A DNA stretch of 61,967 nt, the filler included, from Sphacelaria rigidula (Eukaryota): NCBI GenBank assembly GCA_964200075.2. It is 10 parts of 10 records of this genome, joined end to end, with 100 filler letters (N's around TTAATTAATTAA, not from the genome) between each part and the next. Parts side by side here need not be neighbours in the genome. Positions count along the whole stretch, not along the records: positions 1 to 6,107 come from CAXNAA020022178.1; 9 more parts are not named here. One strand, 5' to 3'. A program made the position numbers and the translations under genes. Shown here in pieces: positions 1 to 51,308 of the stretch. Every line of letters starts with the position of its first letter. Position 1 is the stretch's first letter. Below the pieces are notes generated by a model. That model was given only the letters and a program-made list of their open reading frames with translations, was not told where the DNA came from and did not search any database.

Positions 1-1969
1 GGGATTGATTCGTACGATTCGAATCAATTACAGTAAAACCAAGTATTTCCCAGACGAATCATTGATTTGTCCGAACCTTGTAACAGTTGATGTTTTGTAC
101 TCGCCTTCGTGATGGCACGGCAGTGCTTCGCTCGGATGGTGTCCCGCCGTCATTTTTTTAGCCCGGTCCATCGTGGTATATGGGAGAATCTTGCTGTTCC
201 GCGCAAAATTCCAAAATCCGCTACCCCGGCTGTACCGCAAAGTCGCAACGATTGTACACACTGCTTCCATGATGTGCCCTGCCGTGCGAATTCCGTGATA
301 CGCCCGTACCGTACCGTACCGTACCGTGCCGTACGGTAGGGATGACGGAAACGCCATGGACAAGTGGGTAAGAGTGTAAAACTTGTACGTCGTGGATGAT
401 GACACTAAATCACGTTGTCAAAAAGTGTATTGCGTGCAGTATCGACTGTTGCGTGTATTGCAACAGACAATAGGTTCTATTCTGTACGTGGTACACTTTT
501 TTGACAACGTGATCTATTGTCACTGTCCAAGGCGTAATAACGTGCGACTCACAGCTTGTATCATCACCACGGGAAGTTACTTTTATGGACTTGGAGTTCG
601 GATTCTGAGCAATGTCTTTCTGGTGCGCTTGTCTCCATTATTTGTTTTTATTCGTCTTTCCGTCTGCCGTTTTGTTCTTGAGTTCCCTCCGTGCCTGCGC
701 GATATATGTATATATGTATAGGATCTATCTCGAGACCGCGTTTGATTTGTCGAGAGAGAACGTGCGTACGACTTACATACGTATTTCGCTGTATGTATAT
801 ACAGTTGTACGTCGGGTATGCTGAAATCCGAGAGTTATCGCGGTAAGGTACTGATGTGTCCAATCATTGCGATGAAAAGTTGATGGTTTGATTTTTCCGC
901 GTAGGTACAGCAGTCGTCCGCACCCCTACCACGGTTTTGGAAAATGACATGCCGTGGTGCCGAGCGACACCAAGATGGCGCGATGCCACCCGTACCGCAC
1001 TTTACAGGTGCCGCACACCGTGTACCGCAGTGATGACCCTGAAATCACGTACCATGCCGTGAGGTCAATTCTCGAATACCGCTCCGGAGCAAAACCCTGT
1101 AATGGAGAGTGTACTTGTTTGGGTTAGGGTCGTGTTAATACTTGTTTGGTGTCCTCTTCGTAGGGTTGCGTTGTATCGGAGACATGGGGTGCTTAACGGG
1201 TGTGGGATCTAGAACCTTCCGGTTCGACTTTGCGCAGATCGGACGAGTTTGGCCAAGTTGGTTGCAGTGGAACACGGTCTAATGTACCAGCCGTGGGTGT
1301 CAAGGTTGTGTGGCCCGATAAGCCTTCATCTGGAGGTGATATTAAGGGACGGGGTGGCGGACAACGTAACCGATTACAGTGCTGTAGTTGAGGTACACGC
1401 TGGGGTGATGCCAAGGATAGCTCATTGCGTGCTACACGCGGGTGTATTTGAGGGGCTGATATTCAGCTTACCGGCGATACCTTGTTTTACAGCACCTCTT
1501 CCGTGCGATTGTGGAACACGTGTCTGGGCGCGGGCGTTGTTGGATACCCTGGTACGAGCTGCTCGTCTCCGTCTGTTGTCACCTACAGGGACGATGCGTG
1601 CTGGTGTGTCACATCTGCGTCTGTTCGCATCTTGTTATTGGTAGATAGCATTTGTCCGTCCGTTTTATGTGTCTGGTGAGACGGCAGTGCGTTTTTGGGT
1701 GGCCGGGTGGCCGGCGTGTCGCACATGATGAGCGAATCGGGCAGGGCTAAGGCTCCGAAGGAGGGTCCATCATTCGTCGCTGTTGTTTTGGATGATGACA
1801 CGCGTATACCCGTGTAGTTAGTGATGGGTGGTCGTATCATCCGTCGTTGCTAGAGACGGAAAGAAGAAGAAAATGAGGAAAAATACGATTATTCATTTGT
1901 TTCCGTGACTTGAGTATGATCCACACTGCTATGTTATATGACTGGTGTGTCTGCATGGATAATGATCAG

Positions 1970-2099
1970 GATGACCGCGTTAAGTACCAAGCCGAGACGG
2001 GCAGGGGTAAGATGGAGAAGGAGGCCCTGCTAAACGACTCGGACAGCTTGTGGGCGGAGTTCAGACACGCGCACATCGCCAAGGTTCTGAACGATCTCG
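1970..2099 (+). CDS. Sec1/Munc18 (SM) family protein, internal exon A
   Basis: CAG acceptor at 1967-1969 and GTGAG donor at 2100. Peptide DDRVKYQAETGRGKMEKEALLNDSDSLWAEFRHAHIAKVLNDL fits the SM-family L-x(4-5)-LW-x2-(L/F)RH-x-HIA-x-V motif. Ends in phase 1. Confidence 0.9.
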
Positions 2100-2287
2100 G
2101 TGAGCGAAGCGATCCTGTTTGTTGAGGTTCCAGTGCAAATCATGCCGTAAGATGAGGGTTAAGCGAAAGCATACGGCAGCCGAGTTATAATGTTCGACTC
2201 GAGTGAGTGTTGGGCATCAACCTCCTACAAAGTCCGTTGATTTTTCCCGTTTACTCAGGTTTCTTGATGGTTGCGACATGAGGCACG

Positions 2288-2998
2288 CAAGAGTTTTCTG
2301 GGTAGGGTAAATACCCAAGTATTTTCTCTACCGTATTTTGTGTTGCAATGGTTCGATCTCTGAAGTATTTCCAAATATTGGTGAAAGTCAGGTACGGCCG
2401 CATTACTCGACCCAATATCTGGGTATTGTTGATCACGTCCTCAACACTCTACCCGAATTTTGGGCGCTTAGGCCGGATGTTATGGCCCACGGATTGTTCA
2501 CTTTGGGGGCGTTTGAGCCACTTTTTGACCCCCAAACAGGGAAAACCGCCAACACACGTCTCGGACACTTTGCATCATCCCACAGAGGGGAGCCTAGCCC
2601 GCTTTTCAGATTCGCTTGACTCCAAGGTTTCGACAGTGGCCGCTGAACAATAATCCGTGTGCAATAAAATCTACGGCGGTCTCCACAGATTATTGGGCAA
2701 ACTGGCGGGGGTCGGCAACCACAGATTTTTGCACACAATTTTTTGTCCAGCGGCCGAACTCGAAACCTCGGAGCCAAGCGAACCTCGAAAGCAGACTAGG
2801 CTCCTCTCTGTAGGGTGATGCAAGGTGTCCGAGACGTGGGTTGGCGATTTTCCCTGTTTGGGGGTCAAAAAGTGGCTCAAACGCCCCAAAAGTGAACAAT
2901 CCGTGAGCCAAAAATTTGTTTGCCATAACATCCGGCCTTGAGAGTAGGATTTTTCAGTAATCCCATTTGTAGGATATCACCCACTCAACACAGCCTTG
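2288..2998. mobile_element. hAT-type MITE (CAAG...CTTG) interrupted by a second MITE; same family at 8753-9007 and ~26351-27207
   Basis: Shared body GGTAGGGTAAATACCC...AATATCTGGGTATTGTT. Degenerate 8-bp flanks GAGGCACG / AAGGCGTG. Confidence 0.65.
2471..2937. mobile_element. Long-TIR palindromic MITE, PIF/Harbinger (Tourist)-like
   Basis: ~170-bp inverted arms from GGCCGGATGTTATGGC to GCCATAACATCCGGCC. Flanks TTA / TTG. Confidence 0.72.
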
Positions 2999-3407
2999 AA
3001 GGCGTGAATGTTGTAGTACTGTCGGTGCGCACATATGTCTTTCTCGTGTTGCTATTGTCGAGGGCAGTTGCGTTTTGCACAGACTGTACTTGGTGTACAT
3101 TCTTGTAGTACGTGCGGTTTCTGGAACAAGGCGAGCCAGGAATTCTCACCCGATGCCCTCTTGTCTACTGTGAGTCCTTTACATGCCGGACAAAACTGAA
3201 CCTCTACTTGTTCGCACACGAGGTGACGGCGTGTTTGATCTGTGGTGGACGGAGCATTGTCTGCAGTACATGTACAATCACGTTCATATATGTGCTCCTT
3301 CGTGAATGATGACATTTTTGTCCTGCGCAATATGTTCGAAATCGTTGGATACAATTTTATGTCGTGAACCATATCGGGTCTCCTTCATGTCTATGTTTAA
3401 TGGCCAG

Positions 3408-3478
3408 GCAATCGATTTCGTGAGTTGGTGGCGAGTAATGCCGGGGCGGCAGCGCTGGTGAAGGGCAACGGTCGAAAT
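3408..3478 (+). CDS. Sec1/Munc18 family protein, internal exon B
   Basis: CAG acceptor and GTGAG donor. A phase-1 join to exon A gives G-NRFRELVASNAGAAALVKGNGRN. Ends in phase 0. Confidence 0.8.
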
Positions 3479-3545
3479 GTGAGTTTTTCTTTTTCTTGTC
3501 TTTTTACATCCGTTTCACGTTTGTTCATGTCATCAATGGAGACAA

Positions 3546-3570
3546 GGGTTAGGGTTAGGGTTAGGGTTAG
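3546..3570 (+). repeat. Interstitial (TTAGGG)~4 tract; a (TTAGGG)3 tract also occurs at ~11982-12000
   Basis: Directly visible AGGGTTAGGGTTAGGGTTAGGGTTAGG. Confidence 0.85.
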
Positions 3571-3877
3571 GAGACAAGCAGCCCCCCCCCTCCCTGTTTG
3601 GGATAACGCGTCGCCTTGCTTTTTTTATTGTTGGTGCTTTGTATGTACTTGTGGTATTCTGACGTTTTGAAGTGTGAGGTTTTCAATGAGATTTTTTTGC
3701 ATCAGTCGTCTTTTTCTCAATGTTTGGATACATATACACGGTGGTATCGACGAAGGGCATTAGAATTACCCCCGCCCCGCCCCAGAAGTTATATAGTGGC
3801 AGAATGTGAACTGAACTATACAAGGAGGAACGGGACGCGTTAGAGGGGGAGGTGCGGGACGTGAACGAAGGTGGCAT

Positions 3878-4099
3878 AAAACGATGGCTATACTAGGAGA
3901 TAGCTGGTGGCCACAGACGGCGAAACGAGACGGGGATAATATATGTGAACGGTTTTTGTGCAATGTATGGAAGAAGCGTAATGAGCGCAGGAATGTTGGA
4001 GGTGTCTCTATTAGGAGTAGGGACGGTGCTCCGTCCCGAAAGGGATACGTGGTGAATGGTCAAACGACTAAGGCAAGCAACAAATCAGCACGCCCCCCC
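3878..4099 (+). mobile_element. 5'-truncated LINE-like fragment (ORF2 C-terminus plus C-tail), copy 1
   Basis: Encodes MAILGDSWWPQTAK...FLCNVWKKRNERRNVGGVSIRSRDGAPSRKGYVVNGQTTKASNK followed by a C-run. Seven copies in the window share this 3' end. Confidence 0.7.
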
Positions 4100-4256
4100 G
4101 GTACACGCCTTGCATTGGATCTCTCGCGGTGTTTCGAGTATATGCAGAATGTGACGAAGTGCTGTCCGTATAACTGTTATTGTCCGTATAACTGTTATTG
4201 TCGGTGTCGCTGTCGTCGTCATCGTCGTCGTCATCGTCGTCGTTGTTGTTGTGTAG

Positions 4257-4364
4257 ATGAGCGTGGAGGAAATGGCAAAGGCAACAAGGGATCTGCCAGA
4301 ATTTCAGGAGCTGAGCAAGAAAATGTCTCAGCATGTCCGTCTTTCGCAGGATTGCATGTCGAAG
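4257..4364 (+). CDS. Sec1/Munc18 family protein, internal exon C
   Basis: TAG acceptor, GTACG donor, 36 codons. MSVEEMAKATRDLPEFQELSKKMSQHVRLSQDCMSK resembles the Munc18 domain-3a segment ([27 protein letters not shown]). Confidence 0.88.
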
Positions 4365-5288
4365 GTACGCCTACACTAACCATGCGTCGATGTCCCTGAC
4401 GTTGGCGTTGATGTTGATGTTGATGTGTATGTCCTTTTCTCACGATCTGTCGGTAACATGAATCGGAATGATCTTCCCAAAATGTCGACAACGTGCGATA
4501 CACATGGGTACACCCACCCATGAACATGGGTATACCCACTCATGCGGAGGAAATGTACTGTGACGGCGTAGCCTGGAGCGAATCGGATCGTTCGAAAAGT
4601 GGTTTGGGTGGTTCATCGTTTGGGGGTTGTCATTGTACCCACTCTCCAGATTTACGGGGTATTATTTGCAGTAACCAAAACTCTCACCCACAAGTGTCAT
4701 CGACGGCTCATAGCACAGGTTCTTCCAGGGTTCGTACGGTATAGGGGGGTGGAAGTAGTGAGTATTGCAAATTGCCTGAGCTATCGCCTGTCGAGAGTAC
4801 GTTGAGTGTAGGAGTTCGAGAGGGTGGTGAGACAGACAGTACGCACCTCTTTGACCCGCTATCCTCTTACTATGTCGCCCTGGGTATGCACGGGGTTTAC
4901 CGTGGATGTACTACTACCACCAGTCCCCCTCTCTCTAACGCTCACTTATCGTAAATCGTATCTATTCAACCGGATTGATCGATTGATTGTCGCACTTTAA
5001 CTGACCCCCAGGGGTCCAGCCGTGGTCTCTTGATGGACGTACACAAGAAAAACTGAAACTGAAACACGCTCTGAGGAAAATATGGAAAAAAAAAAAAAAA
5101 GAAGGGTCGAACAGAACGACATAGCAGACTTAAGTCGTAACAAAAAAAAAGGTAATCAAAAGTCAACACAAGCAACGCATAGAAAGAAATGGCCGACCTG
5201 AAGCAAGAAAAAAAAGAAATGAAGAGGAAAATTCAGAGCAAATAAAATAAAATACAACATCCGTTGTTCCGAGTAATTGAGGTCGCCT

Positions 5289-5538
5289 GAGTGATGCCGC
5301 GATACCCCCCCTCCCCCAAGCCAGCCCCGAGATTGTCGCGGAGAAACTCGTCAAAAAGAGCACGATAACTAGTTTCAGACTGCCTCAAGCGCCTCGTATG
5401 GGTGACAGTGGTGAAAACAATCCCAAGCATGCGAGTTTCCGGCCTCGTAAAGTGCTGAGCTTTCATCAATTTGATTGGCACGTGGATTTCGCCTGCTCAA
5501 ACTAGCCACTCCTGTAGGGGGGTATCGCGGTATCACTC
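5289..5538. mobile_element. MITE with GAGTGATGCCGCGATA-C(n) termini; relatives at 9727-9997, 15886-16660 and 23566-23811
   Basis: Inverted termini GAGTGATGCCGCGATACCCCCC / GGGGGTATCGCGGTATCACTC. The three relatives share a colinear interior with one another. Confidence 0.65.
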
Positions 5539-5940
5539 ACCTAGAGTAATCGCTGTGGATTGCACCGATTTTTTCAGTGTGTACCTGACTTATCGTTTGC
5601 CTCACCTACCGATTTATTCCGAGGCAGGTGGGGTGGATAAAAATTTCGGGAATTATCCAGTATTTCAGAGTTGGGGTACGAAGCGCAGAAGACACCGAGT
5701 ATGTTACGGTACATCGGGTGTCGAGGTTTGAAAATGCCGTAACCGCGTGAAGAGGCTCAAAGGTGTGTCAGACGACTTGGCTACTCGCGGCGCGTTCGTA
5801 TTGGGGTGAAAACGGTGTCATGTGGTATGAACGGGTGTCTACTTGGTACCAAGCGCGTTCGAACAAACGTTGCTGCTGTTAACGACGATTCCAGGTGGAA
5901 CCTCGTGGAAGAAATGGCATGAATTACCCCCCCCCTACAT

Positions 5941-6035
5941 CGGTGCTACGTCTTGAAAGGGATGCGTGGTCAATGGTCAAAAGACGAAGGCAAGGATCAA
6001 ATGAGTACGCCCCCCCCCCCCCCCCCCCCCCCCCC
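5941..6035 (+). mobile_element. Poly(C)-tailed LINE-like fragment, copy 2 (short)
   Basis: CGGTGCTACGTCTTGAAAGGGATGCGTGGTCAATGGTCAAA...AAATGAGTACG followed by ~26 C. Confidence 0.7.
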
Positions 6036-6739: not shown

Positions 6740-6851
6740 TAATATTCAGATGGCTAATGAGCTGTCCGATCCGTGTACTAACGTGACAGTATCGTGCATC
6801 GAAGTCCAAGTGACGTTTCCCGGTGACGAAAGCTCGCAGGTGGGAGTTTGT

Positions 6852-6990
6852 CACACCCTGGACGATAGATTACATTGTCAAAAAATGTACTGCGTACAGT
6901 ATGGGATCTATTGTCTATTGCAATAGACAATAGATCCCATACTGTAGGTAGTACATTTTTTTGGCAATGTAATCTACTGTCCAGGGTGTG
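6852..6990. mobile_element. Near-perfect palindromic MITE (CACACCCTGGAC termini)
   Basis: The whole element is self-complementary around CTATTG|CAATAG. Flanks GAGTTTGT / AAGTTTGT give a 7/8 TSD. Relatives lie at ~352-537 and 44315-44508. Confidence 0.8.
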
Positions 6991-7053
6991 AAGTTTGTAC
7001 TGTATTTTCGCGAGTTCCCACAGGGTCAATTCCCATAATGTTGAAAAACTCAC

Positions 7054-7226
7054 GAGTAAGCTGCTGCCGGACTCCACATGCGCCAGAGTGATGACGTAAA
7101 TACCCGGAGCTTCCGCACTACCGTAGGAGTAGAGCGGGATCAGCACCACCAGTCCCCAGAACGACGCGAAAAGACAGATTCGAAGGCACAGATAGTTGAA
7201 CCGTACGAGGCAGTATGCATCCATGC
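7054..7226 (-). CDS. OSCA/CSC1/TMEM63 (ERD4-like, RSN1_TM) channel, downstream exon
   Basis: CAG acceptor at 7227-7229 and GTGAG donor. G-MDAYCLVRFNYLCLRICLFASFWGLVVLIPLYSYG...ITLAHVESGSSLL matches the family G(L/M)DAY-x-(F/L)(L/V)R and LIP(L/V) motifs. Phase matches the upstream exon. Confidence 0.9.
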
Positions 7227-8293
7227 CTGTTGGGGAAAACACATTATCGGCGAACAAGCGAGCACGTAACGTACATGATAAAAAATATATTTTACGAAGA
7301 GATTGATTGCCGATGAAAGTTCAAGAAAAGCAAGTAGGAAGGGGAAACAATAACACGGAACTAACCCCCCCCGAAACTTTCCAAACAACAGAAAAAAAAG
7401 AAACAGAGATTGTTTGCTGAGTCGTGCCTTCGGCATGGCGGAGATATGCATATATGCATTTCATGGTAAGTAGAGAGTGCGTGTTTGCACATAAGAAATG
7501 AATGAATAATGACTCTTTGACTGCGAGGCAGCTTGTGCCTTTTTTTTTTTCAATGCGAAATGCATCGCTACATGTTTTGATTTTCGTATTCGGTTGCTGC
7601 CCCCTAAAGCAACGATCGCAAAAAAGATCTTCAGGTCGACAGGTTGCAACAGACCTTTTGGCCTCCAGGGTGGGTAGGTCGGGTAATTTGCTTAGTCTGC
7701 ATCATTTTCAACTCTCCCAACGTGGGTGTCATGAAGACCGAAGGACCCACCTGGAGGTCAAAGGGTGAAGAGTATATGAGAAAACACATATTGTTATTCC
7801 TCTGATTTCTCGCGCACTACTCTTTTTTTTTCCTCCATTTTTTCATTTTTTCAAGACTGGCAGAGTACCTCATGATTCTCGAACGCTCGCAAGCACCATG
7901 GCGTACACGCAGCGTACCGCTCCGGAGTGCTGCGTTGTACATAATTTTTTTCGGACTTTTCCAGGAATGAGTCTTCGAGAAAAAAATCAAGTCGCTTCGT
8001 TTTCGGACAAAAGTCTAGACGTCTTGTCGAAAGAGTCCGAAAATTTACGAGACACTAATCTCCTCATACAACATAAACACAGAAATTGACAACGAAGGTG
8101 TGTTTGAGCAAGCACTTGATCCAAAAAATAACAAATATGTATACATGAAATTTAAATTTGCCGCATATACAACAGTGTTCTCTCGCCCGTCGTGCCGGAT
8201 ACCAGTTTAAAGTATAACCAGTACATGGTGATCATGTTTACTTTTGTCGTGATACTGTTCAACCGATCCACTATTTTTAGGACCAGTCCCTAG

Positions 8294-14109: not shown

Positions 14110-14338
14110 GGGGTTTTACTCATTTATTGCTTGCCTTAGTCGTTTGGCCATTCAGCACTCATCCCTTTCCAGACGGAGCACCATTCCTACTCCTAATAGA
14201 GAAACCTCCAACATCTCGGTGCTCATTACGTTTCTTCCATATGTTACACAAAAACCGTTTACTGTACATACCTTACCCTCGTCCTGTTTCGCCGTCTGTG
14301 TCCACCACTTACCTCCTAGTATAGCCATCGTATTTTTT
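14110..14338 (-). mobile_element. Poly(C)-tailed LINE-like fragment, copy 3
   Basis: The reverse complement aligns to 3878-4099 over its full length, with a short C tail. Confidence 0.7.
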
Positions 14339-14400
14339 CCTCACTGTACTGTGCCACGGAGGCAACCGATTAAATAATATGACCCACTAAATATACACAC

Positions 14401-15448: not shown

Positions 15449-16099
15449 CTGCTTAGGTATGTACATGTATATCAAGTGAGGTATGACGACGACGACGACG
15501 ACGACAACAACAACAACAACAACAACAAGGGGAAAAGGGGAGAAAAAGAAAACTATAATAATGATTGGGGAGATTTCCAGAACCAAAAATCAATAACAAG
15601 CATGTGTACGTCATTGGCGCTTTGTGTGTACAGTAGGGAATGCATGTGTGTGTGCGCGTGCGCGCGCGCGTGCATAGCAGCATCGTTTTCTGCTCTTGAC
15701 GCCTTCTTATTCCAATAATCACCCTCTCTCGGCAAGAGGCCGTGTTTTCAAGGGACCAACCCATATATGTTCGGGTACCACCTGCCTTGCATTTCGTTAT
15801 CAAGCTCTTAATTATGACTACAGATGCAACTCTCACTGCCCGCGGACGAGTTTCAACGATCCGTTTTCTGCCCCGGATTTTACGTGGAGTGACGCCGCGA
15901 TAGCACCCCCCCCCAAGCGCGCGAACAAGCCCCAAATCTGTCACGAGTAAAATTACTATCGACCGCATGAAATTAATAGCTGGGTTTCAAAATGAATGAC
16001 GGCTCATATGGGCGACATTGGCGAAAATGATCCTAAGCGTCGGAGTTTCCAGCTGCTCGGTGTGCTCGCCTTTTGTCACTTTATTTCACATGAAGATTT

Positions 16100-17489: not shown

Positions 17490-17589
17490 GACGGTGCTCC
17501 GTCTCAAAAGGGATGCGTGGTCAACGGTCAAATGACTAATATGACCAAGGCAAGCAACAAATGAGCCCCCCCCCCCCCCCCCCCCCCCC
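17490..17589 (+). mobile_element. Poly(C)-tailed LINE-like fragment, copy 4 (in a TPR-gene intron)
   Basis: DGAPSQKGCVVNGQMTNMTKASNK* followed by ~25 C. Confidence 0.7.
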
Positions 17590-18141: not shown

Positions 18142-19238
18142 CTGAGTTTTGGGGGGTTTAGTGGGGTGTAGGGAAATGGAGAGGGGGGAGGAAGGGGGAG
18201 GAGGGAGAGGAGGCATGCTTTCAATGCTTTGACTAACCCTGTTGGGACTGGAGTGGACTAACCGGGTGTGACGACATCATCTTCACTTGAAAGCGACTGG
18301 AAATGATCCCGAGTCACACATGGCACCTGCGTTTAAACCAGTGGTTTGTTCACCCCTGGGCGGTAGGAGTCTCAGGGCGTGATTAGCACTTTTTTTTTCG
18401 ATCGAAAAATTGCGATCGAAGTTATTTTTTGCCTACCTGATAGGTCCACCGCATTTATGTTCCTCGAAGGCTTCAACTCAAAATTGTAATTAGCGGCGCG
18501 CGGAGAATAATGCAACGAGTGNNNNNNNNNNNNNNNNNNNNNNNNNNNNNNNNNNNNNNNNNNNNTTAATTAATTAANNNNNNNNNNNNNNNNNNNNNNN
18601 NNNNNNNNNNNNNNNNNNNNNCTGTGGTATCGCCACTTGCCATAGTCATGTGACCATTGACCTTGTATCCCTACAAAACGGGGACGGAGCACGCCGGGCT
18701 TTCGCCGGACCAGGCTCGCAATCAATTACCAAGCGCGAAGCGCCATGATGTGGCCGGCAAATCGCATGAAGGGCGAGCTGCATCCTGCTAAGACTGTTCG
18801 GCCCGAAGCGTACTGAGCATCTTGCATGGATGACAGCCTACAATGACTTGCTTCATTTTCTGGTATCGCCACTTTCAGAGACAGCCACGGGTTACACTGC
18901 CTCATGGGAATCTCACAAAGTTCAATGCCACGTGATACGATCATCCCCTTTGCGCGGAGTCCAGGTGCTCCACCGTACACAACATGATATAATTCAACCA
19001 CCGCCATAGTAACCGTAAAAATATCGCAAGCAAGAAAAAAACGGTAACCTGATTGCCCTGCTTACGCAGTAAATGGCGTGTTTTACAGCGCCGTTGCTAA
19101 CCAACGCCAAACCCTTTAAGAGAAAAGAGTGCTAGGGGGGGGGGGGGAAGTGATGCGAATACCATCATGTACAAAAGAAATATTGCCGTGCCTTTGGAGG
19201 TGTCATCACCTTTACACATACGGCGCCAAGACACTCAC

Positions 19239-22939: not shown

Positions 22940-24174
22940 CTGGCATCCCCCACGACGGAAAGTGGCAAGAGGAGGCGCCATCCGCCAGAAGAAGTTGCAA
23001 AGGGGGGCCGTGGCGGGGGAGATCATGTTCGTTTTCCTTCTATGTCGTCATACGCTCAGCACCTTCCCTTTTCTCGGGACAAGTCTGTGGTCTTCAGCGA
23101 TCAACTCATCTCTGCCCCGCTATATGCACAACATTTTTGTACCATACCGCATGGGATTGGATCATGACCATCAGCACTCCCGTACGACATCGGCTGTTGA
23201 TACACCCACGCCCTCACGTTTTCAAGAAACCAAAACAGGTTCTTCTCCAAAGAAGTAAAGTGTCTTACACCTCTTGAATATACCTTTGAGAAAATTGACC
23301 ACGAGTGAGCTCGAGAGGGACGAAACATTGCTTTAAATCAAAGGAAAGCCAACATCGAATTCGTCCCTCCCTCCTTGTCGAAAAATGACTCCAAACGGTT
23401 GTGTTCATGCGATGGTGCTAGCTTATGTGGAACTTGATGCACGACCCATGTACCCACCCGGTACGGGGAACGGGTAGGGCAGGGGTTGACAAGTCCTTCA
23501 AACCCTTGACCCCTTCCCTCCTACCACACTACAAAATGATGTCTTTCAGCGACTCTATCTGAACGTCATGCCGCGATAGCCCCCCCCCAAACACCAGCCC
23601 CTAACGTGTCACGAAGGAAATGGCCATACAGCGCATGATAACGGTTCCATATTTCGTGAAGCCCCTCATATGGGCAACATTGGCGATAACGATCCCAAGC
23701 ACGGGAGTTCCCAGCTGCTCGGTGTGCTCGGCTTTTGTCATTTTGATTCGCATGCCGATTTGGCCTCCTCAAGCCAGCCATTTTTGTGGGGGGAGCTATC
23801 GGGCCATCACTCCTGAATGCAGTCGGTACTACAAGTATTGTGAGGGAGTCCTGACAGCGGGTCCGGTAAAACCACGCTAGAGCACAAACACACGCGCACG
23901 CACGCTCAACGACACACGACACACGACACACGACACACGACACACGACACATGCACATTGATAATCCGTCGAGCTGGCTTGGCTTCTGCTACTCGAAGGT
24001 TTCAACCGCTCTTTACTACGTGGTAACAGGTGAGGTTTAAGAGAAATATTTGATATAATGAATGGGCCTAGACACTCGAGAGCACACGTGCACTTTTGAT
24101 ACAAAAATATCAGTACCCTGTTCAGGCGTGTTCGGCAGCGTTGTGCGAGAAGCATGCACTTGCCGTAGCTGCAC

Positions 24175-40200: not shown

Positions 40201-43200
40201 CATGCTGTGCATGCGTGGACGATGGTTGCCCGCGGCTCAGGTTACTACTGAGAAAGCGGAGGCTCTCACGGGAACATGCCTCGTGCAATGAAACACCTAA
40301 AAACAAGAAATGCCCTTCGTGTCAGTTCGATTTTCATGGCGCATGCCAAGTACCGTACGTAGTCAACGCAAGTTGGAGATGGCACGTATTTCGAAAACGA
40401 GTATCCATGTGCGAATGGATACGGTAGTCGTATATCACGAGCTCTCTCACGAAATTTGCAGCCGCACCATGCTGAAGGGCTTAAACCCCGATGCAGCGTG
40501 TTCTCACCCCAGCACCCAATCTGCTGGCATGCACTCACACAAGCTATATGTTGGAAATTGGCGTGGGTGTGGTTTAGCCCCTTCATAGACTCACTGAGGA
40601 CTGACAGTGGTGATTCAGCCCACTTGTTTTCTTCAGCCAACGATGGAGAGCAAACAGTATACGCGACGCTCATGTGCATGTTCTGAGAGTCTCAGAGAAA
40701 GAAGAGTATGGAGAGTGGAATAGATAGAGGGGTGTGGTGTATTATCAATAATTTCCGAGTTCAAGCTAAAGCTATTGTTAGTTGATTCAAAATCATGTGT
40801 GGCTTGCAGGTATGTACGCTTGTTTGCGCATTGAGTTGAATATGATAACCCAGCCTATTCCGTAGAACTGGACTCCATACTCCCCCCTACTCTGATGACT
40901 CAATGACGAGTCATGCTATAAGGGAGGGGGGGGGGGGGGGGGGTTCTACCAAGAAAAGAGCTCATAGGTGTGTCAGATGACCTCACACACTCTCGGCGCG
41001 CTGGTTTTGGGTAAAACGGTGTCCAGCGGTACGAATGAGCGTGATTCATCGGTAACGAGGGCGTTTGAACTACCGTTGCTGCTTCAACGACGATTTGAAG
41101 TGGAATTTCGTGCAAGAAATGGCCAAACACGCACCCCCCCTGTCGTATCATGACCCTGACCTGTTCGGTACAAGTGCAGTCTGAGTGAATAATGCGCATA
41201 CAACACGATACATATATAACGGGAGACACTGCCGCCAGGTGTGATCACTGTACTGGTACCGCAACTAGCTGAAGAGGCGTGGTACAGGTTCTCCGGAAGC
41301 GCGTGAGCGTGCCTATTACAATATAGACGGACAGAGCTTGAGGTATCGCATGGGTATGTCGTCGGGCTGCGCAGGCCTCGAAAAAATTGAATTGCCCCGC
41401 TCGGTCGAACAAATTTGCGGGGGAATATAACGGCATCCATTCCACACGACTTGTGCTATACAGTATAGTCAACTATAATCACCTCATACGTTGCTCACAC
41501 AGCTCTCCCGAGAAGTTCGTCCCCCCACGAAGGTGAAGCAGGGGGGGTACTGCTGTCTTCGTATTAACGCCATATTTCTATGTATCGTGGGATCTTGTAT
41601 CTGCGGTAGAATATGGTTCGCCATTTGGCCGGAATTTGATGGGCGGGCTGAGATGGGAGATTATCCCCACGTACGTTATCTGTCGATTCGGAATCGCCGT
41701 GGCCTTGGACCCGCCCGCAGACTCGCAATCTAAATGAAAATCCAACTCGGTAATCAGATGGTTTTCTCGTATCGCTACTATCAAGAAGAGTATCAATTTG
41801 TTGTTATGTATCATTAGGTGGGACATTTAGATTTCATGGCATCTAAAAAAATTGTAGTATAATTCGCTACATACCAGCTTAGAATTTTACGTTTTTCTAG
41901 TATGACAGCCAAGACTGTACTAATATAGCGGGTAAAAATGGATGATGGCAAAAGGTACAGATTGGTTTATTGTAAGTTGCCGGCTGTCGTAGCCGACACA
42001 TCCGCACGCAAAATACTCGAGCAGGTGGCCCTCGACCCTTGCAGGAGGCAATAGCTATATCCGGTACTCTCTAATCCACATATTTTATCTCCAGAGTGCT
42101 TGCTTCGCTGCTTGGTCGTGTACCTGGACAACACCATTTTGAAACAACAGCCACGAGCCGAAGCTGCGGAGGGAATACAAACCGGTGGGAACAAAGGTCG
42201 GCTGTACTCCATTGTATGATGTGCTGCTTGCTCTAACAACGCTGGTTTGAATATCCTTGAAAGTGCTTGCGGATACTGCCTTTGAGCCTACCCATCTGCT
42301 GGTTTTGCGTTAGCCACGTGCAAATCGGGTGCTACTTCGTTGTTGTGATACATCGTGCAGAGGTCACCCTGAAGCTGCCCGCCACTATGGTACATGAAAC
42401 TCCAGCAGTGCCCCATGGTGCCGTACTGCTGTTGCAGCGCATAGGTCAGCTGCGCAGTCTAGGGAAGTTCTGGAATGTATTATTTGCCGAGTTGCAGACT
42501 GGCGCAGGGTGCGACACAGCAATACAGCAAAATAAGTAAATTTGTCCAAGAGACATGGTGACACAGTTTACCCGTACTTGTCATTGGCTCCCTGAGTGCT
42601 CGTGGTTTCTATTCCGAGATTCTTCCGCTAACTGTCCTTCAAGTTTTGAACGATGACTGTCAGGCGGTGTTATGACGAAACAAGGAAAATGATTATCATT
42701 TCGTGATAGAGATCGTGAAGTGACGGTTCACAACTTGACTATCACGAGGAATCATGCGCCGTTCCAATCTAGGGTGGGAAGGAAGTGATACAGTGACGGT
42801 AACAGCACGCGAACAGACCAGCGACTTCAAGCCGGGCGGCAATCACGCGCAAGGGGGGGTATGGGTATTGTCGCAAGTCGAAACGCGGACCGCCTTCCGC
42901 ACGAGAAGGGGAAGAAGCAACAGCAGCAGTATCGGCAGCATCTTTACTGCCAGTAGATGCACGCGGCTGGGGATGGGTCTAAATCAGCCGGCGCCGATAC
43001 TGCTGCTGCTGCCGTTCCTCCTTGTGGGAGAGACCGTCCGCGTTTCGATCGTGTTTCAACGCCCACACATCATGCACGTGATGGCCACCGTGCTGGAAAG
43101 CGCTGGTCCGTACTACCCGCCGATGGGTCTATGCTCCCTCACTAGGCGAAGTGCTGGGAGATGTAGCTGCGCGCATCTCTCTGTGCGAGCTGTGCACGTC

Positions 43201-44314
43201 GGGTGTGTCTCGCACGCGTGGCTACTGCTGGTGATGGGAATAAAGCCAGCGTCCAATACAGGGGAAAATAAGTGATATGTGCTCATGCTGAAAATGCTAT
43301 GGGGGTGTACTCATGATCATGCATGCCATAGTCATTAGACCATTGATCTNNNNNNNNNNNNNNNNNNNNNNNNNNNNNNNNNNNNNNNNNNNNTTAATTA
43401 ATTAANNNNNNNNNNNNNNNNNNNNNNNNNNNNNNNNNNNNNNNNNNNNGTTAGTTTGCCAGTAGTACAATGGCTGTACTGATGATGATGTGGGCAACGA
43501 GCAGTACAGACATAACTAAGCAGTACAATACTGCCTGTTCTGCCTGCTGCATACGGCAGTATACATGCGCACATGTCAGGTTGGAGACGGTAATATACAA
43601 CGGCTGCACTAGAATTGATGTGGAGGAGTGCAGTATAGACAGTACACTACTTTTGTCTGTACTGCCGCGTACATGATATGGCAGTGTAGACTGAAGATGG
43701 CAGGTTGCACACAGTGCGAGCTGGGCCATCAGCGATCGGGGGAGGTGTACGTTTCAGGTCTTTTTACATGAACACAGAGAGCTTGGCATGGCAAAGTCTT
43801 TGAGTCTTTGTACCTCGCCGTGGCCTGCACATCCCTTCGGTTTCCGCCGACCGTTCTTTTGGTATCCCCCCACCCTTTGGTACCCACCCCCCTCAAAATA
43901 TATATCTACAACCGTAAGCTAGGGTCAACATCTCTCATAGTATTTTCCTAGCGGTATTTTTTCCTCATAATATGTTGCGAAATACGAGGGGAAATAACCA
44001 ACCGGAAGAAACGGCCTACAAGGGCATGCCGTGGCAGATTATTGTTCGATCGAAAAAGTGCGGTGAACAAATCCGACATGATAGGTTGTCATCTCGACAT
44101 GAATGACGTGAACATGAATGGCTGCCCGTCCTGACCAACCAGATTGGTTTTTTTTTCGCCGCCACACCTTTTCGGTCGAAGTACGGTGGAAAGCAAAAAT
44201 TCCGGTCTGATAGATCGTGATTTTAATATGAAATGCGATAGTTGAAATCATGGCTCATTAGATCAGAATGTCAGAATTTCCCTTTTCCACCGCACATTTC
44301 CATTCGAAAAAGTG

Positions 44315-44514: not shown

Positions 44515-47267
44515 TGCTGCGGAGAAGAAAATTTTCGATCTGATGGGCCCACCGCATTTCTGTTCCTAATTGCCTTCAACTATTTTTATGATTAGTCGCG
44601 CGCGGAGAAGGGGTTAAAAGCAATAAGCGAAGCTTTTCGGTCGAAAATATGTGCTCGAAAGGTACGAAGGGGCACTTGACTTCTTTCTCACAGACTACCA
44701 CGTCAGATACCACCCGTTCACAGAACCATTCAAACTCCATGCAACTAATTCTCAGCTACCACCGCAACCCTGCAGCATAGAGCATACCAGTTGAGCACAA
44801 GGATAGATACACTGCAGTAGTTGGGCAAGCTTTGTTTATTTCATGTTGGCGAAAACTTGAGCATCTCTTGTCATGGTAGGGATCATCAACGGAACTCGGT
44901 GGTGGGGCGAGCAACCGAGTTGCGTACACGCCCATGGACAGTGCAGGCAGTTCAAGGCTGCACGTTGTCCAAGTCCTCTTCACGTCGCATTGTGAGCAGA
45001 GAGGACAGATAATCTAGTGTGCTGTCTGCACGACACGTTGCCCGCTTCTCTTTCACATCCTACCGTACGAAACACGCACACACGCACTCAAGACACACTG
45101 CGTGCAAACAGTGAAGACAGTACAGACTGTCTGTACTACACACAAGCGACCATGTACCGTTTCACGAATTTCACTGTCTTTTTTTCGATCGAAAGACTGA
45201 ATGTTCGCTTGGACCCAATTCGACAAAAATGAGCGAATTTCGCTCAAATCGATTCCACCGCCTCTTTCTCCGATCGAAAAAAATGTGCTAAGACACGCCC
45301 TCGGGTACATTTTTTTTCGATCGAGAAAAAGTGCGGTGGAATTGATTTCAGCGATTTCGTTCATTCTTCGCGAGTTGGGTCCTATAATGGTGAATTGGCA
45401 AGCTGTCGATCGAGAAAAGGGTGAAATTCGTGAAGCGGTACTTGTTCGCTTGGCTGGAGCAAACAGTGCTGTGTGTGTGCGTTTATGTATATTAGGATGT
45501 GAGAGATAAGCGGGCATGCAACGTGCAATACAGACAGCTCAGGGCCATCTGTACTCTGCTTAAAATGCGACGTGAGAAGGACTTGAACAACGTTTAGCTT
45601 CGTAGTGCCTGCACTGTTCATGAGCGTCTACGCAAGTTGGTCGTTCACCCTACCGCGCAGTTCTGTCGCCGATCCCTAACATAAAAGATGCTCAAGTTTT
45701 CGCGAACAAGAATTAAACATATCATACCGAAGTACTTCGGCGTATCTATCCATGTTCAACTCGCGCTCCACGCTGCAGGGTTGCGATGGTAGCTGAGAAT
45801 GACTTGTGTCTTTGATTGGTCCTGTGGACGGGTGGTATCTGGCGTGGGGGTCTGCAAGATAGAAGTCAAGTGCCTCGTCGTACCTTCCTACGCATGTTTT
45901 CGATCGGAAAGGTTACCTTGGGGATGTTTTCCCTCCTGCCCGCACGTCGCTAATTATAAAATATAGTTGAAGCCAGCTAGGAACAGAGATGCCGTGCAAC
46001 CTATCAGATCGATTTTTTTCTTTCCCGCCGCACTTTTCCGATGAAAAAAAATGTTCGAAGACACCCCCCACGCCCTGAGACACGCCCTTTGTCGAAACCA
46101 AGGAAAGAAGCGGGAAAGGGAACAAGCGTCCGAGAGCATTTGGATTAGTCGCCGCAACGATTACCCGCCCGGGGTTCACTCAACACGCTGTCACTCGACG
46201 CTTTTCCCCTTTCCCGCGTTTTTTTTGTGATCTCGACAAGGGTCGTGTCTTGGCACACTTTTTTTCGATCGCAGAAAAGTGCGATGGAATTGATGTGAGC
46301 GAAGTCGTTCATTTTTCGCGAGTTGTGTCCAAGCGAATATTGCGAGCTCTCGATAAAAATAAAAATAAAAAAGCGTGAAATTCGTGGAGCGGTACGTGTT
46401 CGCTTGTCTACAGTGCGGCACTGTACTGTCCGTAGTTTCTGCGTACAGTGTGTCTGACTGTGTGTGCGTATTTCGTGCTGTAGAATGTGAAGAAGAAGCT
46501 GGCAACATGCATTGCAAACAACACGGGACTATCTGTACTCTCTGCATACAACGCGACGTGAGAAGGACTTGAACAACGTGCAGTTTTGTCCTGCCTGCAC
46601 TATCCATGAGCGTGTACGCAAGTCGGTCGTCCACTTAACCACGCAATTCCGTGGCCGATCCTTACCATGAAAGAAAATGCTCAAGTTTTGATTCACAAAA
46701 AATGAACGCATCATGCCCAACTACTGCAGTATATCCCTGTGCTCAACTCATGCTCTCTGCCGCGGGGTTGCGGGGGTAGCTAAGAGTGAATTGTGGGGGG
46801 GTTGGATGCCTCTGTAAACGGATAGTATCTGACGTGGTGATCTGCAAGATAGGAATCAAGTGCTCCCCCGTGCTTTTTCTCCGCACGTTTTCGATCGAAA
46901 AGCTGAGCTTTATTGTTGTTTTTTTCTTTCCACCTGCACCGTGCAGACGCCCCGGTGGCTCAGTTGGTGGCCTCGCTGCCCTCTGACAGGTGGGTCGTGG
47001 GTTCGAATGTCGGAGCGACAATACACAAAGCCCAACAGTGGACAACGACTGCGTCGTGGGTACACGATATTTGACTCAACTGTCGACAAGGGAAAAGGAC
47101 TGCTAAACCCCTCTCGCGATAAAGAATAAAGGCAAGCATCGCAGAAGGAAGGTGGAGAACTAGAAAAAATACTGCTGCGGTGTCCTTCCTGTGTGACGCC
47201 GGCTGGTGCGCCCACATACACCGAAAGGTGTACACCGACGTCCAGAATAAATGGATGACAACACACA

Positions 47268-47298
<31 letters not shown>

Positions 47299-47830
47299 GC
47301 ACGTACCACTATTATGATTATAAAACATAGTGGAAGCCATCTAGTAACGGAGATGCCGAGGACCTATCAAATCGAAATTTCTTTTCTCCACCGCACGTTG
47401 TTGATCGAATAAAAATATTCCAAGGCAAACCGTAGATTTTTCGATCGAAAATATGCGGTTGAAAGATACGAAGGGGCACTTGACTCCTATCTTGCGGACC
47501 ACCACGCCAGATACTACCCGTGTACATAAACATGCAAATCCCCCACAATTCATTCTCAGCTACCCCCGCAACCCTGCGGCAGAGAGCAGGAGTTGAGCAC
47601 AGGTATAGATGAACTGCAGAAGTTGGGCATGATGTGTTCGTGTTTTGTTCGCGACAGCGTGAGCACCTTTTATGGTGGGGGTCGGCGACGCAAATTGCGT
47701 GGTGAAGTGGACGACCGACTTGCGAACACGCTCATGAACAAGACAGGCAATACAAACTACTTGCTGTTCAAACCCTTCTCACGTCGCGTTGTATGCAGAG
47801 AGTACAGATAGCCCTGTGCTCTCTGTACTG
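44515..47830. repeat. Array of four ~500-800-bp copies in alternating orientation, rich in TCGATCGAAA (+44515-45330, -45330-46050, -46230-46910, +47335-47830)
   Basis: Blocks such as CTCAGCTACC-CCGCAACCCTGC and CTTCTCACGTCGC occur twice on each strand. A fragment also lies at ~18375-18510. Confidence 0.75.
46949..47284 (+). mobile_element. tRNA-derived SINE family 1, full length
   Basis: A-box TGGCTCAGTTGG, B-box GGTTCGAATG, 3' hairpin TACACC-GAAA-GGTGTA and a (CA)n tail. Confidence 0.85.
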
Positions 47831-48024
47831 CATGTTCGCAGCTTCTCCTCCTGCTATTGCACGAAGCTCGCTTTGACCCATCACACCGACACGCTCTCGT
47901 GTGTCCGAGACGAATTCTTTTATGGAAACAAATCCCGAATTTGCGGAGACCCAAATCTGTGCAAAATCGGGGGGCCCAAAATTGCCAGGTTCGCAGGGGC
48001 CCTATTTTGGTTCAACAGATTCGT

Positions 48025-49834: not shown

Positions 49835-49990
49835 ATGGGGGGGGGGGGCATACTCATCTGTTGCTTGCCTTTTTCGTTTGACCATCGACCACGCGTTTCT
49901 TTCAAGACGGAGCACCATTCCTACTCCTAAAAGAGATACCTCCAACATTCCAGCACTCACCACGTTTCTTACGTACACTACACAAAAAGC
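49835..49990 (-). mobile_element. Poly(C)-tailed LINE-like fragment, copy 5
   Basis: G-run then CATACTCATCTGTTGCTTGCC...TTTCAAGACGGAGCACCATTCCTACTCCTAA on the + strand. Confidence 0.68.
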
Positions 49991-50374
49991 ATATGGAACT
50001 CCTGTGTTGGCCTTCCTCCTGTGTGACCCCGGCTGATGCGCCCACAAATGCCGAAAGGTGTAGACTGAGCTGTGCGTGTTGTGTTGTCATCTCATCTATG
50101 CATGACGCCGGTCTACACTTTTCGATACATGTGGGCGCACCAGCCGGGGTCACACAGGAGGAAGGCCAACACAGAAGTTTTTTTTTGTTGTAGACTGGCG
50201 TCCAGAAAAGATGGGATGACAACACACAACACACATACTCACACACAACACAACAAAAAAAATTGACATATCTCATCCTCTTCCTAACTCGCCCTCTGTG
50301 GCCACCGTCTATCATCTCCAAGTATAGCGATTGGTTTTCTCGCTTCTGTCTAGTGCATCAAACTAGATCAAATG

Positions 50375-50499
50375 GATGAAAGAAACGTAATGAACGCCCA
50401 AATGCTAGGGGCGTGTATGTGAGGAGTAGGAACTGTGTCCCGAAAGGGATGCATGGTCAAATGACAAATGACAAATGCAAACATGAGCATGCCCCCCCC
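50375..50499 (+). mobile_element. Poly(C)-tailed LINE-like fragment, copy 6 (diverged)
   Basis: AAGAAACGTAATGAACGCCCAAATG...TCCCGAAAGGGATGC...ATGAGCATG then C8. Confidence 0.62.
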
Positions 50500-50733: not shown

Positions 50734-50965
50734 CGGGGGGGGGGGGGGGGGGGCGTACTCATTTGTTGCTTGCCTTGGTCATTTGACCATTGACCACGTA
50801 TCCCTCTCGAGACGGAGCACCGCTTCTAGTCCAAACAGACATCTCGAGTATTGGGCGCTCGTTGCGTTTCTTCCATACATGGCACAAAAAATATTTCACA
50901 GTACAGTCCTTGCAGTATCCGTTTCCTGTTTGGCCATCTGTGGCGACCATCTATCACTCCCAGTA
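50734..50965 (-). mobile_element. Poly(C)-tailed LINE-like fragment, copy 7
   Basis: ORF 50759..50950 ends FLCHVWKKRNERP...NGQMTKASNK*, then GTACG and ~21 C on the element strand. Confidence 0.7.
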
Positions 50966-51308
50966 TACCGATTATTTTTCTCGCTTCTGTCTAATGTACC
51001 AAACGATTTTCATGTCACATTCGTTTAGTTGTCCTACTTTCTCTCTAACACGTCCCGTTCCTCCTTGGATAGTTTACGTTCTGCCACTACATAGAATTCT
51101 ACTCTATATTACTTTGCCACAGGCACAAATTCTGTGCATCTACTTCCTCCTCCACCCGACTACTGGTATACCTCTTTTTTTTCTGGCAAGTCCAGTTCTG
51201 CTCTCGACTTTTTTCAGTATACCTGCTCCCCCCCCCCGCGCACGCCCATTCGTTCATTCATCTTTTCCTCGCCCCGTCATCCCGCTTCTGATTTTTCTCG
51301 CTCGGCAG

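Follow-up and report, generated by a model that had tools for sequence, protein, structure and literature searches.

The short repeat at 3783-4099 (+) of the DNA analysed here raises the question of what kind of element ends in a run of cytosines, and of whether that run belongs to the element or to the sites into which it inserts. A sequence-only reading had taken it for one of seven LINE-like copies on the same stretch, all with one 3' end, a C-run and variable 5' starts, the signature of target-primed reverse transcription. The window, as we call the whole stretch of 61,967 bases, is made up of ten pieces of ~6.1 kb with spacers of the form N44-TTAATTAATTAA-N44 between them. Exon-like Pfam matches (Sec1, two RSN1_TM pieces 3 kb apart, MBT and IU_nuc_hydro) are dispersed through it, as are many repeats detected by self-blast, and together these show a eukaryote with introns.

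Here we describe the copies in the window, the full-length element to which they belong, and the relation of its C-run to the target. The explanation that we consider best overall, with a probability of roughly 80%, is an autonomous LINE of the APE type, most probably RTE-X, whose templated C tail would pair with G-runs.

Copies of the repeat in the window

All seven copies are present at or near the positions first proposed for them, in pieces 1, 3 and 9, as judged by blastn and self-blast. With 3601-4150 as the blastn query against the window, all seven were recovered at 72-86% identity (E 5e-62 to 3e-15), and the 15-mer AAGGCAAGCAACAAA, with at most three mismatches, occurs 13 times where 2.22 occurrences are expected, a count reached in 0 of 100 shuffles of the window. 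This recovery, the excess of the 15-mer and the tails show that the seven-copy observation is real and well above chance. In the alignment the copies share the 3' end ...AAGGCAAGCAACAAATGAGTACG, after which come the Cs, and each one closes with ATGAG, TACG or a variant of it, and a C-run. The common end is therefore found in every copy, and the runs, first estimated at ~5-26 C, measure 4-26.

Copy c1 (3783-4099, +) consists of 310 nt and C7, and corresponds to 4662-5004 of the reference L004rc (blastn, 78%) and to residues 1260-1360 of the protein P0020 (tblastn), both introduced below. Its stop codon is mutated to TCA and the frame continues; because of this loss and of a (GTC)n/(GTT)n microsatellite ~100 nt downstream (4190-4250), a spurious frame of 194 aa is found at 3815-4399. 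Two copies on the same strand are short forms, c2 (5941-6035) with the last 69 nt and C26 (L004rc 4929-5007, 91%) and c4 (17491-17589) with 75 nt that include a 9-nt internal duplication, C24 and a C-rich 5' flank. Those on the minus strand are c3 (14110-14355), a 3' fragment with its tail shrunk to AAA and C4 (L004rc 4772-4995, 84%; tblastn from residue 1285), c5 (49837-49988), a 3' fragment of 140 nt with C12 (L004rc 4858-5007, 85%), and c7 (50735-51198), the longest, of 445 nt with C19 (L002rc 3343-3792, 78.5%; tblastn from residue ~1218). The remaining copy, c6, has a direct 3' part at 50371-50499 (+) that ends in C8. Beyond the seven there are an inverted segment (50266-50363, -) and two small fragments: c8 (43301-43346, -), a 3' fragment with C5 whose 5' side is lost at the end of piece 7 (L002rc 3737-3781, 83%), and c9 (18636-18672, -), a weak match of 37 nt close to the edge of piece 4 (L002rc 3725-3761, 86%, E 1e-5).

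The 5' ends vary. On L004rc they fall at 4564 (c7), 4662 (c1), 4772 (c3), 4858 (c5), 4928 (c4) and 4929 (c2), with c6 split, so that measurement against full-length references gives seven distinct end points. The variable starts claimed for the family are borne out to this extent, with the qualification that c2 and c4 begin alike (GGTGCT, 69-75 nt from the end) and represent a recurrent short form. A fixed start at 3878, as for a SINE-like unit, was considered and rejected, since c1 and c7 reach further against the full-length references; the apparent common start of c1, c3 and c7 at that point is due to a divergent or indel patch and is no true end. For these same three copies the 5' ends first given were too short, whereas the positions themselves were right. 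The window copies span only the last 69-445 nt of the element (at most 150 final codons by tblastn and blastn against full-length references) at 71-91% identity to those references and, judged by such comparison, are dead, old, 5'-truncated LINE 3' ends.

The two parts of c6 bear on how such copies arise. Read on the + strand, the segment at 50266-50363 runs backwards through the element, as its reverse complement, from position 4851 to 4758 (blastn L004rc 4758-4851, 81.6%, E 9e-20), and the direct copy (4867-5005 and C8) lies 7 bases further on, with 15 element bases missing at the joint. As read from the order and orientation of its parts, this layout is a classic twin-priming inversion, and it fits target-primed reverse transcription, the signature of which, already proposed from the fixed 3' end and variable 5' ends, is strengthened by it.

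The full-length element and its classification

The 90-aa translation of c1 (3815-4084) matched 48 longer proteins of public collections at E<=0.01, among which P0020 (1360 aa) and P0042 (1328 aa) are full-length and have C-termini of the form ...GAPSRKG.VVNGQMTKASNK. The shared peptide noticed earlier thus proves to be the C-terminal end of an ORF of 1360 aa. The reverse transcriptase domain RVT_1 matches residues 740-989 of P0020 (E 9.8e-31) and also P0042 (E 1.7e-32); N-terminal to it, the APE endonuclease domain Exo_endo_phos matches residues 170-392 of P0020 (E 3.4e-12), as Exo_endo_phos_2 does too, and a CPCG...H....EC motif is found C-terminal to RVT_1 in both proteins. The domain order is an RRM-like N-terminal domain, APE endonuclease, reverse transcriptase and C-terminal Cys/His motif, within a full element of ~5-6 kb that has one ORF of 1360-1412 aa. 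With both enzymatic domains found by profile search in P0020 and P0042, the suspected LINE identity is confirmed through full-length relatives that carry them in a single ORF.

Metagenome contigs scanned with a 19-mer of the 3' end yielded eight loci, three of which (L002, L004 and L007) are the element; L001, L003, L005, L006 and L008 proved to be chance matches of the 19-mer within unrelated DNA. In the contig L004 the single ORF, 1412 aa long (4357..119, minus strand), is intact and is followed by the stop, GTACG and C10, which agrees with the 3' UTR of ~5 nt proposed earlier, and a second ORF of at least 80 aa is absent from the same strand over the 750 nt upstream. The element shows one 3' end with unrelated 3' flanks and no terminal repeats, and the L004 contig stops short of its 5' end. 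A scan of genome contigs added one further copy, L009 (CBRFFM010000043.1), with a C13 tail, and a scan of viral contigs gave 0 matches. The L009 contig is filed as a MAG of an 'uncultured bacterium' despite its eukaryotic LINE 3' end, a label that is probably a binning error.

Within the window, Pfam detected no reverse transcriptase or endonuclease in the 34 ORFs of at least 150 aa from its whole length, or in 256 of its 355 ORFs of at least 70 aa (pieces 1-4 and 8-10); the other 99, from pieces 5-7, were reached by tblastn alone. Run against the entire window with P0020, tblastn recovered the 3' fragments and nothing else of the LINE, and the ESM Atlas returned generic EN-RT clusters only. 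Residues 1-104 of P0020 (L004:3920-4210, -) have a predicted beta-alpha-beta-beta-alpha-beta fold, with a mean pLDDT of 76 and a pTM of 0.67. The best structural matches are RRM domains (Z 6-7.2, rmsd 2-3 A over 62-71 residues), at values under the level that proves kinship, and Foldseek gave no match to this domain at E<=0.001. The modelled domain is likely a fused RNA-binding module in place of ORF1.

The RT region has its nearest named relatives in Ectocarpus sp. CCAP 1310/34, in the 'unnamed protein products' P0049 (66% identity) and P0090 (78%, over part of the region), and P0090 has the C-terminus of the family, ...NGAPSRKGRVANGQMTTASNK. As deposited, P0090 is a gene model of 1927 aa in which a Gypsy-type polyprotein is joined to the last ~430 LINE residues; it is a transposon chimera and no host gene. 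A study of Ectocarpus transposable elements (Genome Biology 2025, PMC12477816) tabulates the LINE superfamilies CRE, RTE, RTE-X and Unknown, the last with three unclassified families. In supplement file 1 of that study, RTEX-1_Ec32 is described as 'single EN-RT ORF; (C)n 3'' with a 'C-rich' TSD and RTEX-2_Ec32 as having '(C)n termini/TSD', and the non-autonomous RTEX-N1 and RTEX-N2 are credited with C-rich TSDs, common 3' ends and copies that 'can be present in tandem'; among the Ectocarpus LINE entries examined there, (C)n is noted for RTE-X only. The main text leaves C tails undiscussed (PMC12477816). RTEX-1 is recorded in Saccharina too (PMC4421812), and RTEX is given as a standing Repbase clade (PMC5753468).

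Because the Ectocarpus proteins are nearest and the (C)n-tailed Ectocarpus families are classed as RTE-X, we consider the element to be most probably a LINE of the RTE-X type, in a host that is probably a brown alga, an assignment drawn from named neighbours and shared features and not from an RT tree. The host is indicated only indirectly, and the one host exon compared with the longer proteins (6781-7320) has no match among them at E<=1e-5. The RTE-X features present are the single EN-RT ORF (in L004), the 3' C-run (12 of 12 copies) and, partly seen, the C-rich TSD. Likened through their curators' descriptions and not through consensus sequences, RTEX-1_Ec32 and RTEX-2_Ec32 share with the element the single EN-RT ORF, a length of 5.5-5.9 kb, the (C)n 3' end, short non-autonomous partners, tandem copies and, as far as they are seen here, C-rich TSDs. 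They differ in that Ectocarpus P0049 reaches no more than 66% identity across the RT region, and the window copies are old (71-91% to references), whereas most of the transposable-element content of Ectocarpus is <5% diverged. RTE-1_Ec32, of the RTE clade and with a (CAA)n tail, is also alike in its one EN-RT ORF, very short 3' UTR and simple-repeat tail that is not poly(A), but here the tail is a C homopolymer, and a longer ORF has an RRM-like domain at its N-terminus and a Cys/His motif at its C-terminus.

A W-x-x-RN motif had suggested instead that the element belongs to the L1/Tx1 group. Some distant matches carry PF13966, and the C-terminal Cys/His motif followed by FLCN.WKKRNE resembles what we take to be the zf-RVT region. 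However, zf-RVT (PF13966) matches neither P0020 nor P0042 at E<=0.1, there is one ORF and not two, the tail is of C, and the RT is as near to an R2 protein (8.8e-20) as to L1 ORF2p (6.6e-21). The nearest named relatives, moreover, come from Ectocarpus, whose (C)n families are RTE-X and whose LINE table includes no L1 or Tx1 family (PMC12477816), and we regard membership of L1/Tx1 as very improbable.

As for its novelty, which had been left unchecked, the C tail is not new in kind, because the curators of a related genome recorded the same feature, a (C)n 3' end with C-rich TSDs, in their curation table (PMC12477816). A search of literature main texts found nothing relevant on poly(C)-tailed LINEs, and the consulted portion of the Phaeoexplorer preprint contains nothing on LINEs. 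Poly(C)-ended LINEs are rare, and in the literature searched the curation notes on the Ectocarpus RTE-X families are their sole mention.

The C-run and its target

Wherever the 3' end of a DNA copy was readable (12 of 12), a C-run of at least four stands 0-7 nt past ATGAG. L007 has CC, T and then C7, and L004 and three independent loci all have TGAGTACG with C8-C13. Homology does not continue past the run, and 0 of 66 pairs of 3' flanks beyond it are alike at E<0.4. Among the 48 matching ORFs the stop is read through in 20, every one of which has a proline (CCN) at most five residues past the end of homology, and half of these (10 of 20) have PPP or longer, as in ...KASNKRVRPPPP and ...MSTPPPPPPPS.

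Logan contigs of four public runs were aligned to L004 at 80% likeness, which gave 28,859 contigs in X1, 130,775 in X2, 6,389 in X8 and 9,016 in X9. X8 and X9 are RNA by guess only, and none of the sequencing runs containing the element is recorded as RNA. The alignments end at places 103-107, the end of L004's run, where a G-run (C on the element strand) comes next and then unlike sequence with an agreement of ~0.4; such contigs number 243 in X1, 1571 in X2, 244 in X8 (32+117+45+50) and 219 in X9 (35+137+47). In each of the four runs the depth, a sum over contigs and no measure of copy number, peaks across the final 342 nt, as fits 5' truncation; in X1 the two end bins reach 414,887 and 343,565, and the other bins range from 130 to 159,000. 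Also in X1, 3,095 of the 28,859 aligned contigs are at least 99% like L004, so that close relatives of the intact copy are present in this run.

At the 5' junction, Cs stand directly before c1 (CCCCCGCCCCGCCC), c2 (C9 and TACAT) and c4 (C-rich over 30 nt), the latter two as noticed in the first reading; c3 has CCTCC, and c5, c6 and c7 lack a C-run there, which leaves 3 of 7 copies with one. A search for TSDs in these old window copies gave no readable duplication: c1, c2 and c4 have only C-rich stretches on either side, and nothing could be made out at c5-c7. Both c1 and c2 sit behind a C-run that terminates another repeat, here called repeat X. Its copy at 5745-5935 (+) is ~190 nt long, not LINE-coding, and ends in C9 with c2 5 nt on; it is 75.6% identical over 172 nt to 40956-41123, within a second copy at 40944-41134 (+) that ends in C7 and has G18 (40926-40943) before it. 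The trace before c1 (3740-3782), ~40 nt resembling the 3' end of repeat X, gives a local alignment score of 39, where shuffles have a mean of 23.4, an sd of 3.9 and a maximum of 38. Repeat X was considered as a part of the LINE and rejected, as it has no similarity to L002 or L004. By analogy with RTEX-N2_Ec32 (188 bp), repeat X is possibly a non-autonomous partner of this element.

Copies of the element are also found behind C-runs of their own kind. In P0011, P0024 and P0009 the 3' end of one copy is followed by Cs and then by a new truncated copy, tail to head, and in hundreds of run contigs the short form, the last 66-69 nt, has a C-run in front too. Loose ends with a G-run behind places 177-179 number 365 in X2, 96 in X8 and 97 in X9, and tandem joints that go back 74-79 occur, among those listed, in 59 contigs of X2, 7 of X8, 5 of X9 and 3 of X1. 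A telomere-like stretch lies between the two sides of a joint in X2. In the window this short form is represented by c2 and c4. The recurrent start (L004rc 4928/4929 for c4/c2, and the loose ends at 177-179), the tandem joints in four runs, and the Ectocarpus non-autonomous RTEX-N families, described by their curators as having 60-100 bp of 3' end in common and as units that 'can be present in tandem', could all be cited for an independent SINE-like or satellite repeat that carries the LINE's 3' end. Such a unit has no head of its own, however, being merely the last 66-69 nt of the ORF, and the same pattern would arise if a hairpin or a pause site lay there, or if the tail were primed repeatedly. 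We consider an independent repeat quite unlikely, and it adds to the LINE reading without replacing it.

A C tail and targeting of C/G homopolymers had been offered as alternatives, and each is partly supported, the former by the 3' run in 12 of 12 copies and the latter by 5' Cs in 3-4 of 7. If target specificity were the whole explanation, a tail-less element would insert into pre-existing C/G homopolymers, and the 3' C-run would be the right half of the target. This would account for the C-runs at the 5' junctions of c1, c2 and c4, for the hundreds of contigs in which the short form lies between two C-runs, and for the C-rich TSDs and '(C)n termini' in the entries of the Ectocarpus curators. 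Since a run closes every 3' end and is common, though not constant, at the 5' junction (3 of 7, or 4 with CCTCC), an element-borne tail at C/G-rich targets nevertheless fits better than pre-existing runs alone, and the finding of TGAGTACG with C8-C13 in the intact L004 and three independent loci likewise argues against a tail-less element, which we judge unlikely. The tail might also be put on the RNA after transcription, as poly(A) is on L1 RNA, a possibility suggested by analogy with poly(A)-tailed LINEs and by the variation in length from C4 to C26. We know of no poly(C) addition in the nucleus or cytoplasm. Polycytidylation is reported for Chlamydomonas mitochondrial mRNAs, but DNA-templated tails lengthened by slippage account for the same data, and addition to the RNA seems to us scarcely credible.

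The family had further been proposed as a source of the many poly(C)/(G) tracts in this genome. The window has 28 C or G runs of at least 8, of which 5 are LINE tails, 1 is a tail of repeat X and 4 belong to a repeat with CGATAG and Cn. The LINE family adds to the C/G tracts, then, and the majority of those in the window are not accounted for. The CGATAG repeat, a family of its own with C9-C13 near one end, is found at 9723-9767/9958-10000, 15894-16099, 23565-23812 and 5291-5538; two of its copies have an A-run after the Cs, and at 9.7-10.0 kb two ends form an inverted pair (91%), turned towards each other. An interstitial telomere-like stretch of GGGTTA, of about four units, lies at 3546-3571, with a C9 run 10 nt on (3582-3590). 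A repeat block at 44621-47865, unrelated to the LINE, contains direct and inverted units of ~400-690 nt that are 70-80% alike.

A proposed insertion mechanism and its meaning

For a LINE with a templated C tail, the reading that we prefer, insertion might proceed as follows. The DNA of source copies would carry the C-run, which would be transcribed into the RNA; the endonuclease would nick at or near G/C homopolymers, and the freed G-rich 3' end would pair with the C-run of the RNA and prime reverse transcription. Every 3' end would thereby receive a C-run, whose length slippage and merging with Cs of the target would vary. Pairing of this kind would also leave target-site duplications rich in C, and new insertions would often fall within the C tails of older copies or of other repeats that end in C. 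If reverse transcription stopped early or switched templates, 5' ends would vary and the mini-form of 66-69 nt would keep recurring. The last ~70 nt, possibly with a stem that includes the stop codon, probably serve as the recognition signal for the RT.

From ten copies RNAalifold predicted a candidate for such a structure, in which CGUCUC-GAAA-GGGAUG forms a hairpin and CGUGGUCA/UGAGUACG a long-range stem that includes the stop codon. Paired cells amount to 91.1%, against 88.5% in shuffles, a level reached by 2 of 500 shuffles, and when the predicted structure is slid by 1-3 columns only 28-57% are paired. Double changes occur at three pairs, among them the change of TGA to TCA in c1, which is matched by one of GTCA to GTGA; three such pairs are reached in 24 of 500 shuffles. 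This support is suggestive only, because the structure was derived from the same ten related sequences on which it was tested.

L1 has a poly(A) tail and a TTTT/A target. The element resembles it in 5' truncation and twin-priming inversion and probably also in its logic, by which a homopolymer tail pairs with the nicked strand and TSDs start with the letter of the tail; it differs in having C and not A, a tail that does not originate by ordinary polyadenylation, one ORF and another clade. Microsatellite-specific LINEs (Waldo, Mino, Kibi, Koshi and Dong) lie inside their target repeat and have it on either side. In the present family, too, insertions are tied to a simple repeat that also forms the 3' end, but Cs are seen at the 5' junction of no more than 3-4 of the 7 copies, and it is the short form that is flanked on both sides in many contigs. 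In the eel, UnaL2, a LINE of the stringent type, has a conserved 3' stem and a repeat tail for recognition by its RT, and short partners with the same 3' end, whereas the candidate stem in the present element lies within coding sequence, includes the stop codon and is a prediction only.

For annotation, these findings mean that short C-tailed repeats and their peptide-like ORFs are LINE debris and not genes. A homopolymer tail that does not come from polyadenylation offers a clean test of tail-target pairing versus endonuclease specificity in the choice of landing site, and it raises the question of whether C-tailed elements make the C/G tracts of these genomes. More tentatively, and with the odds in our estimate somewhat against it, a working primer-binding C-run and the stop-codon stem may together form a minimal mobilisation signal of ~70 nt that steers insertions into G/C homopolymers and into the element's own tails, and that would seed or lengthen poly(C)/(G) tracts and build arrays of 66-69-nt units in brown algae. 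If this is true, the signal would be a testable C:G counterpart of the poly(A) system of L1.
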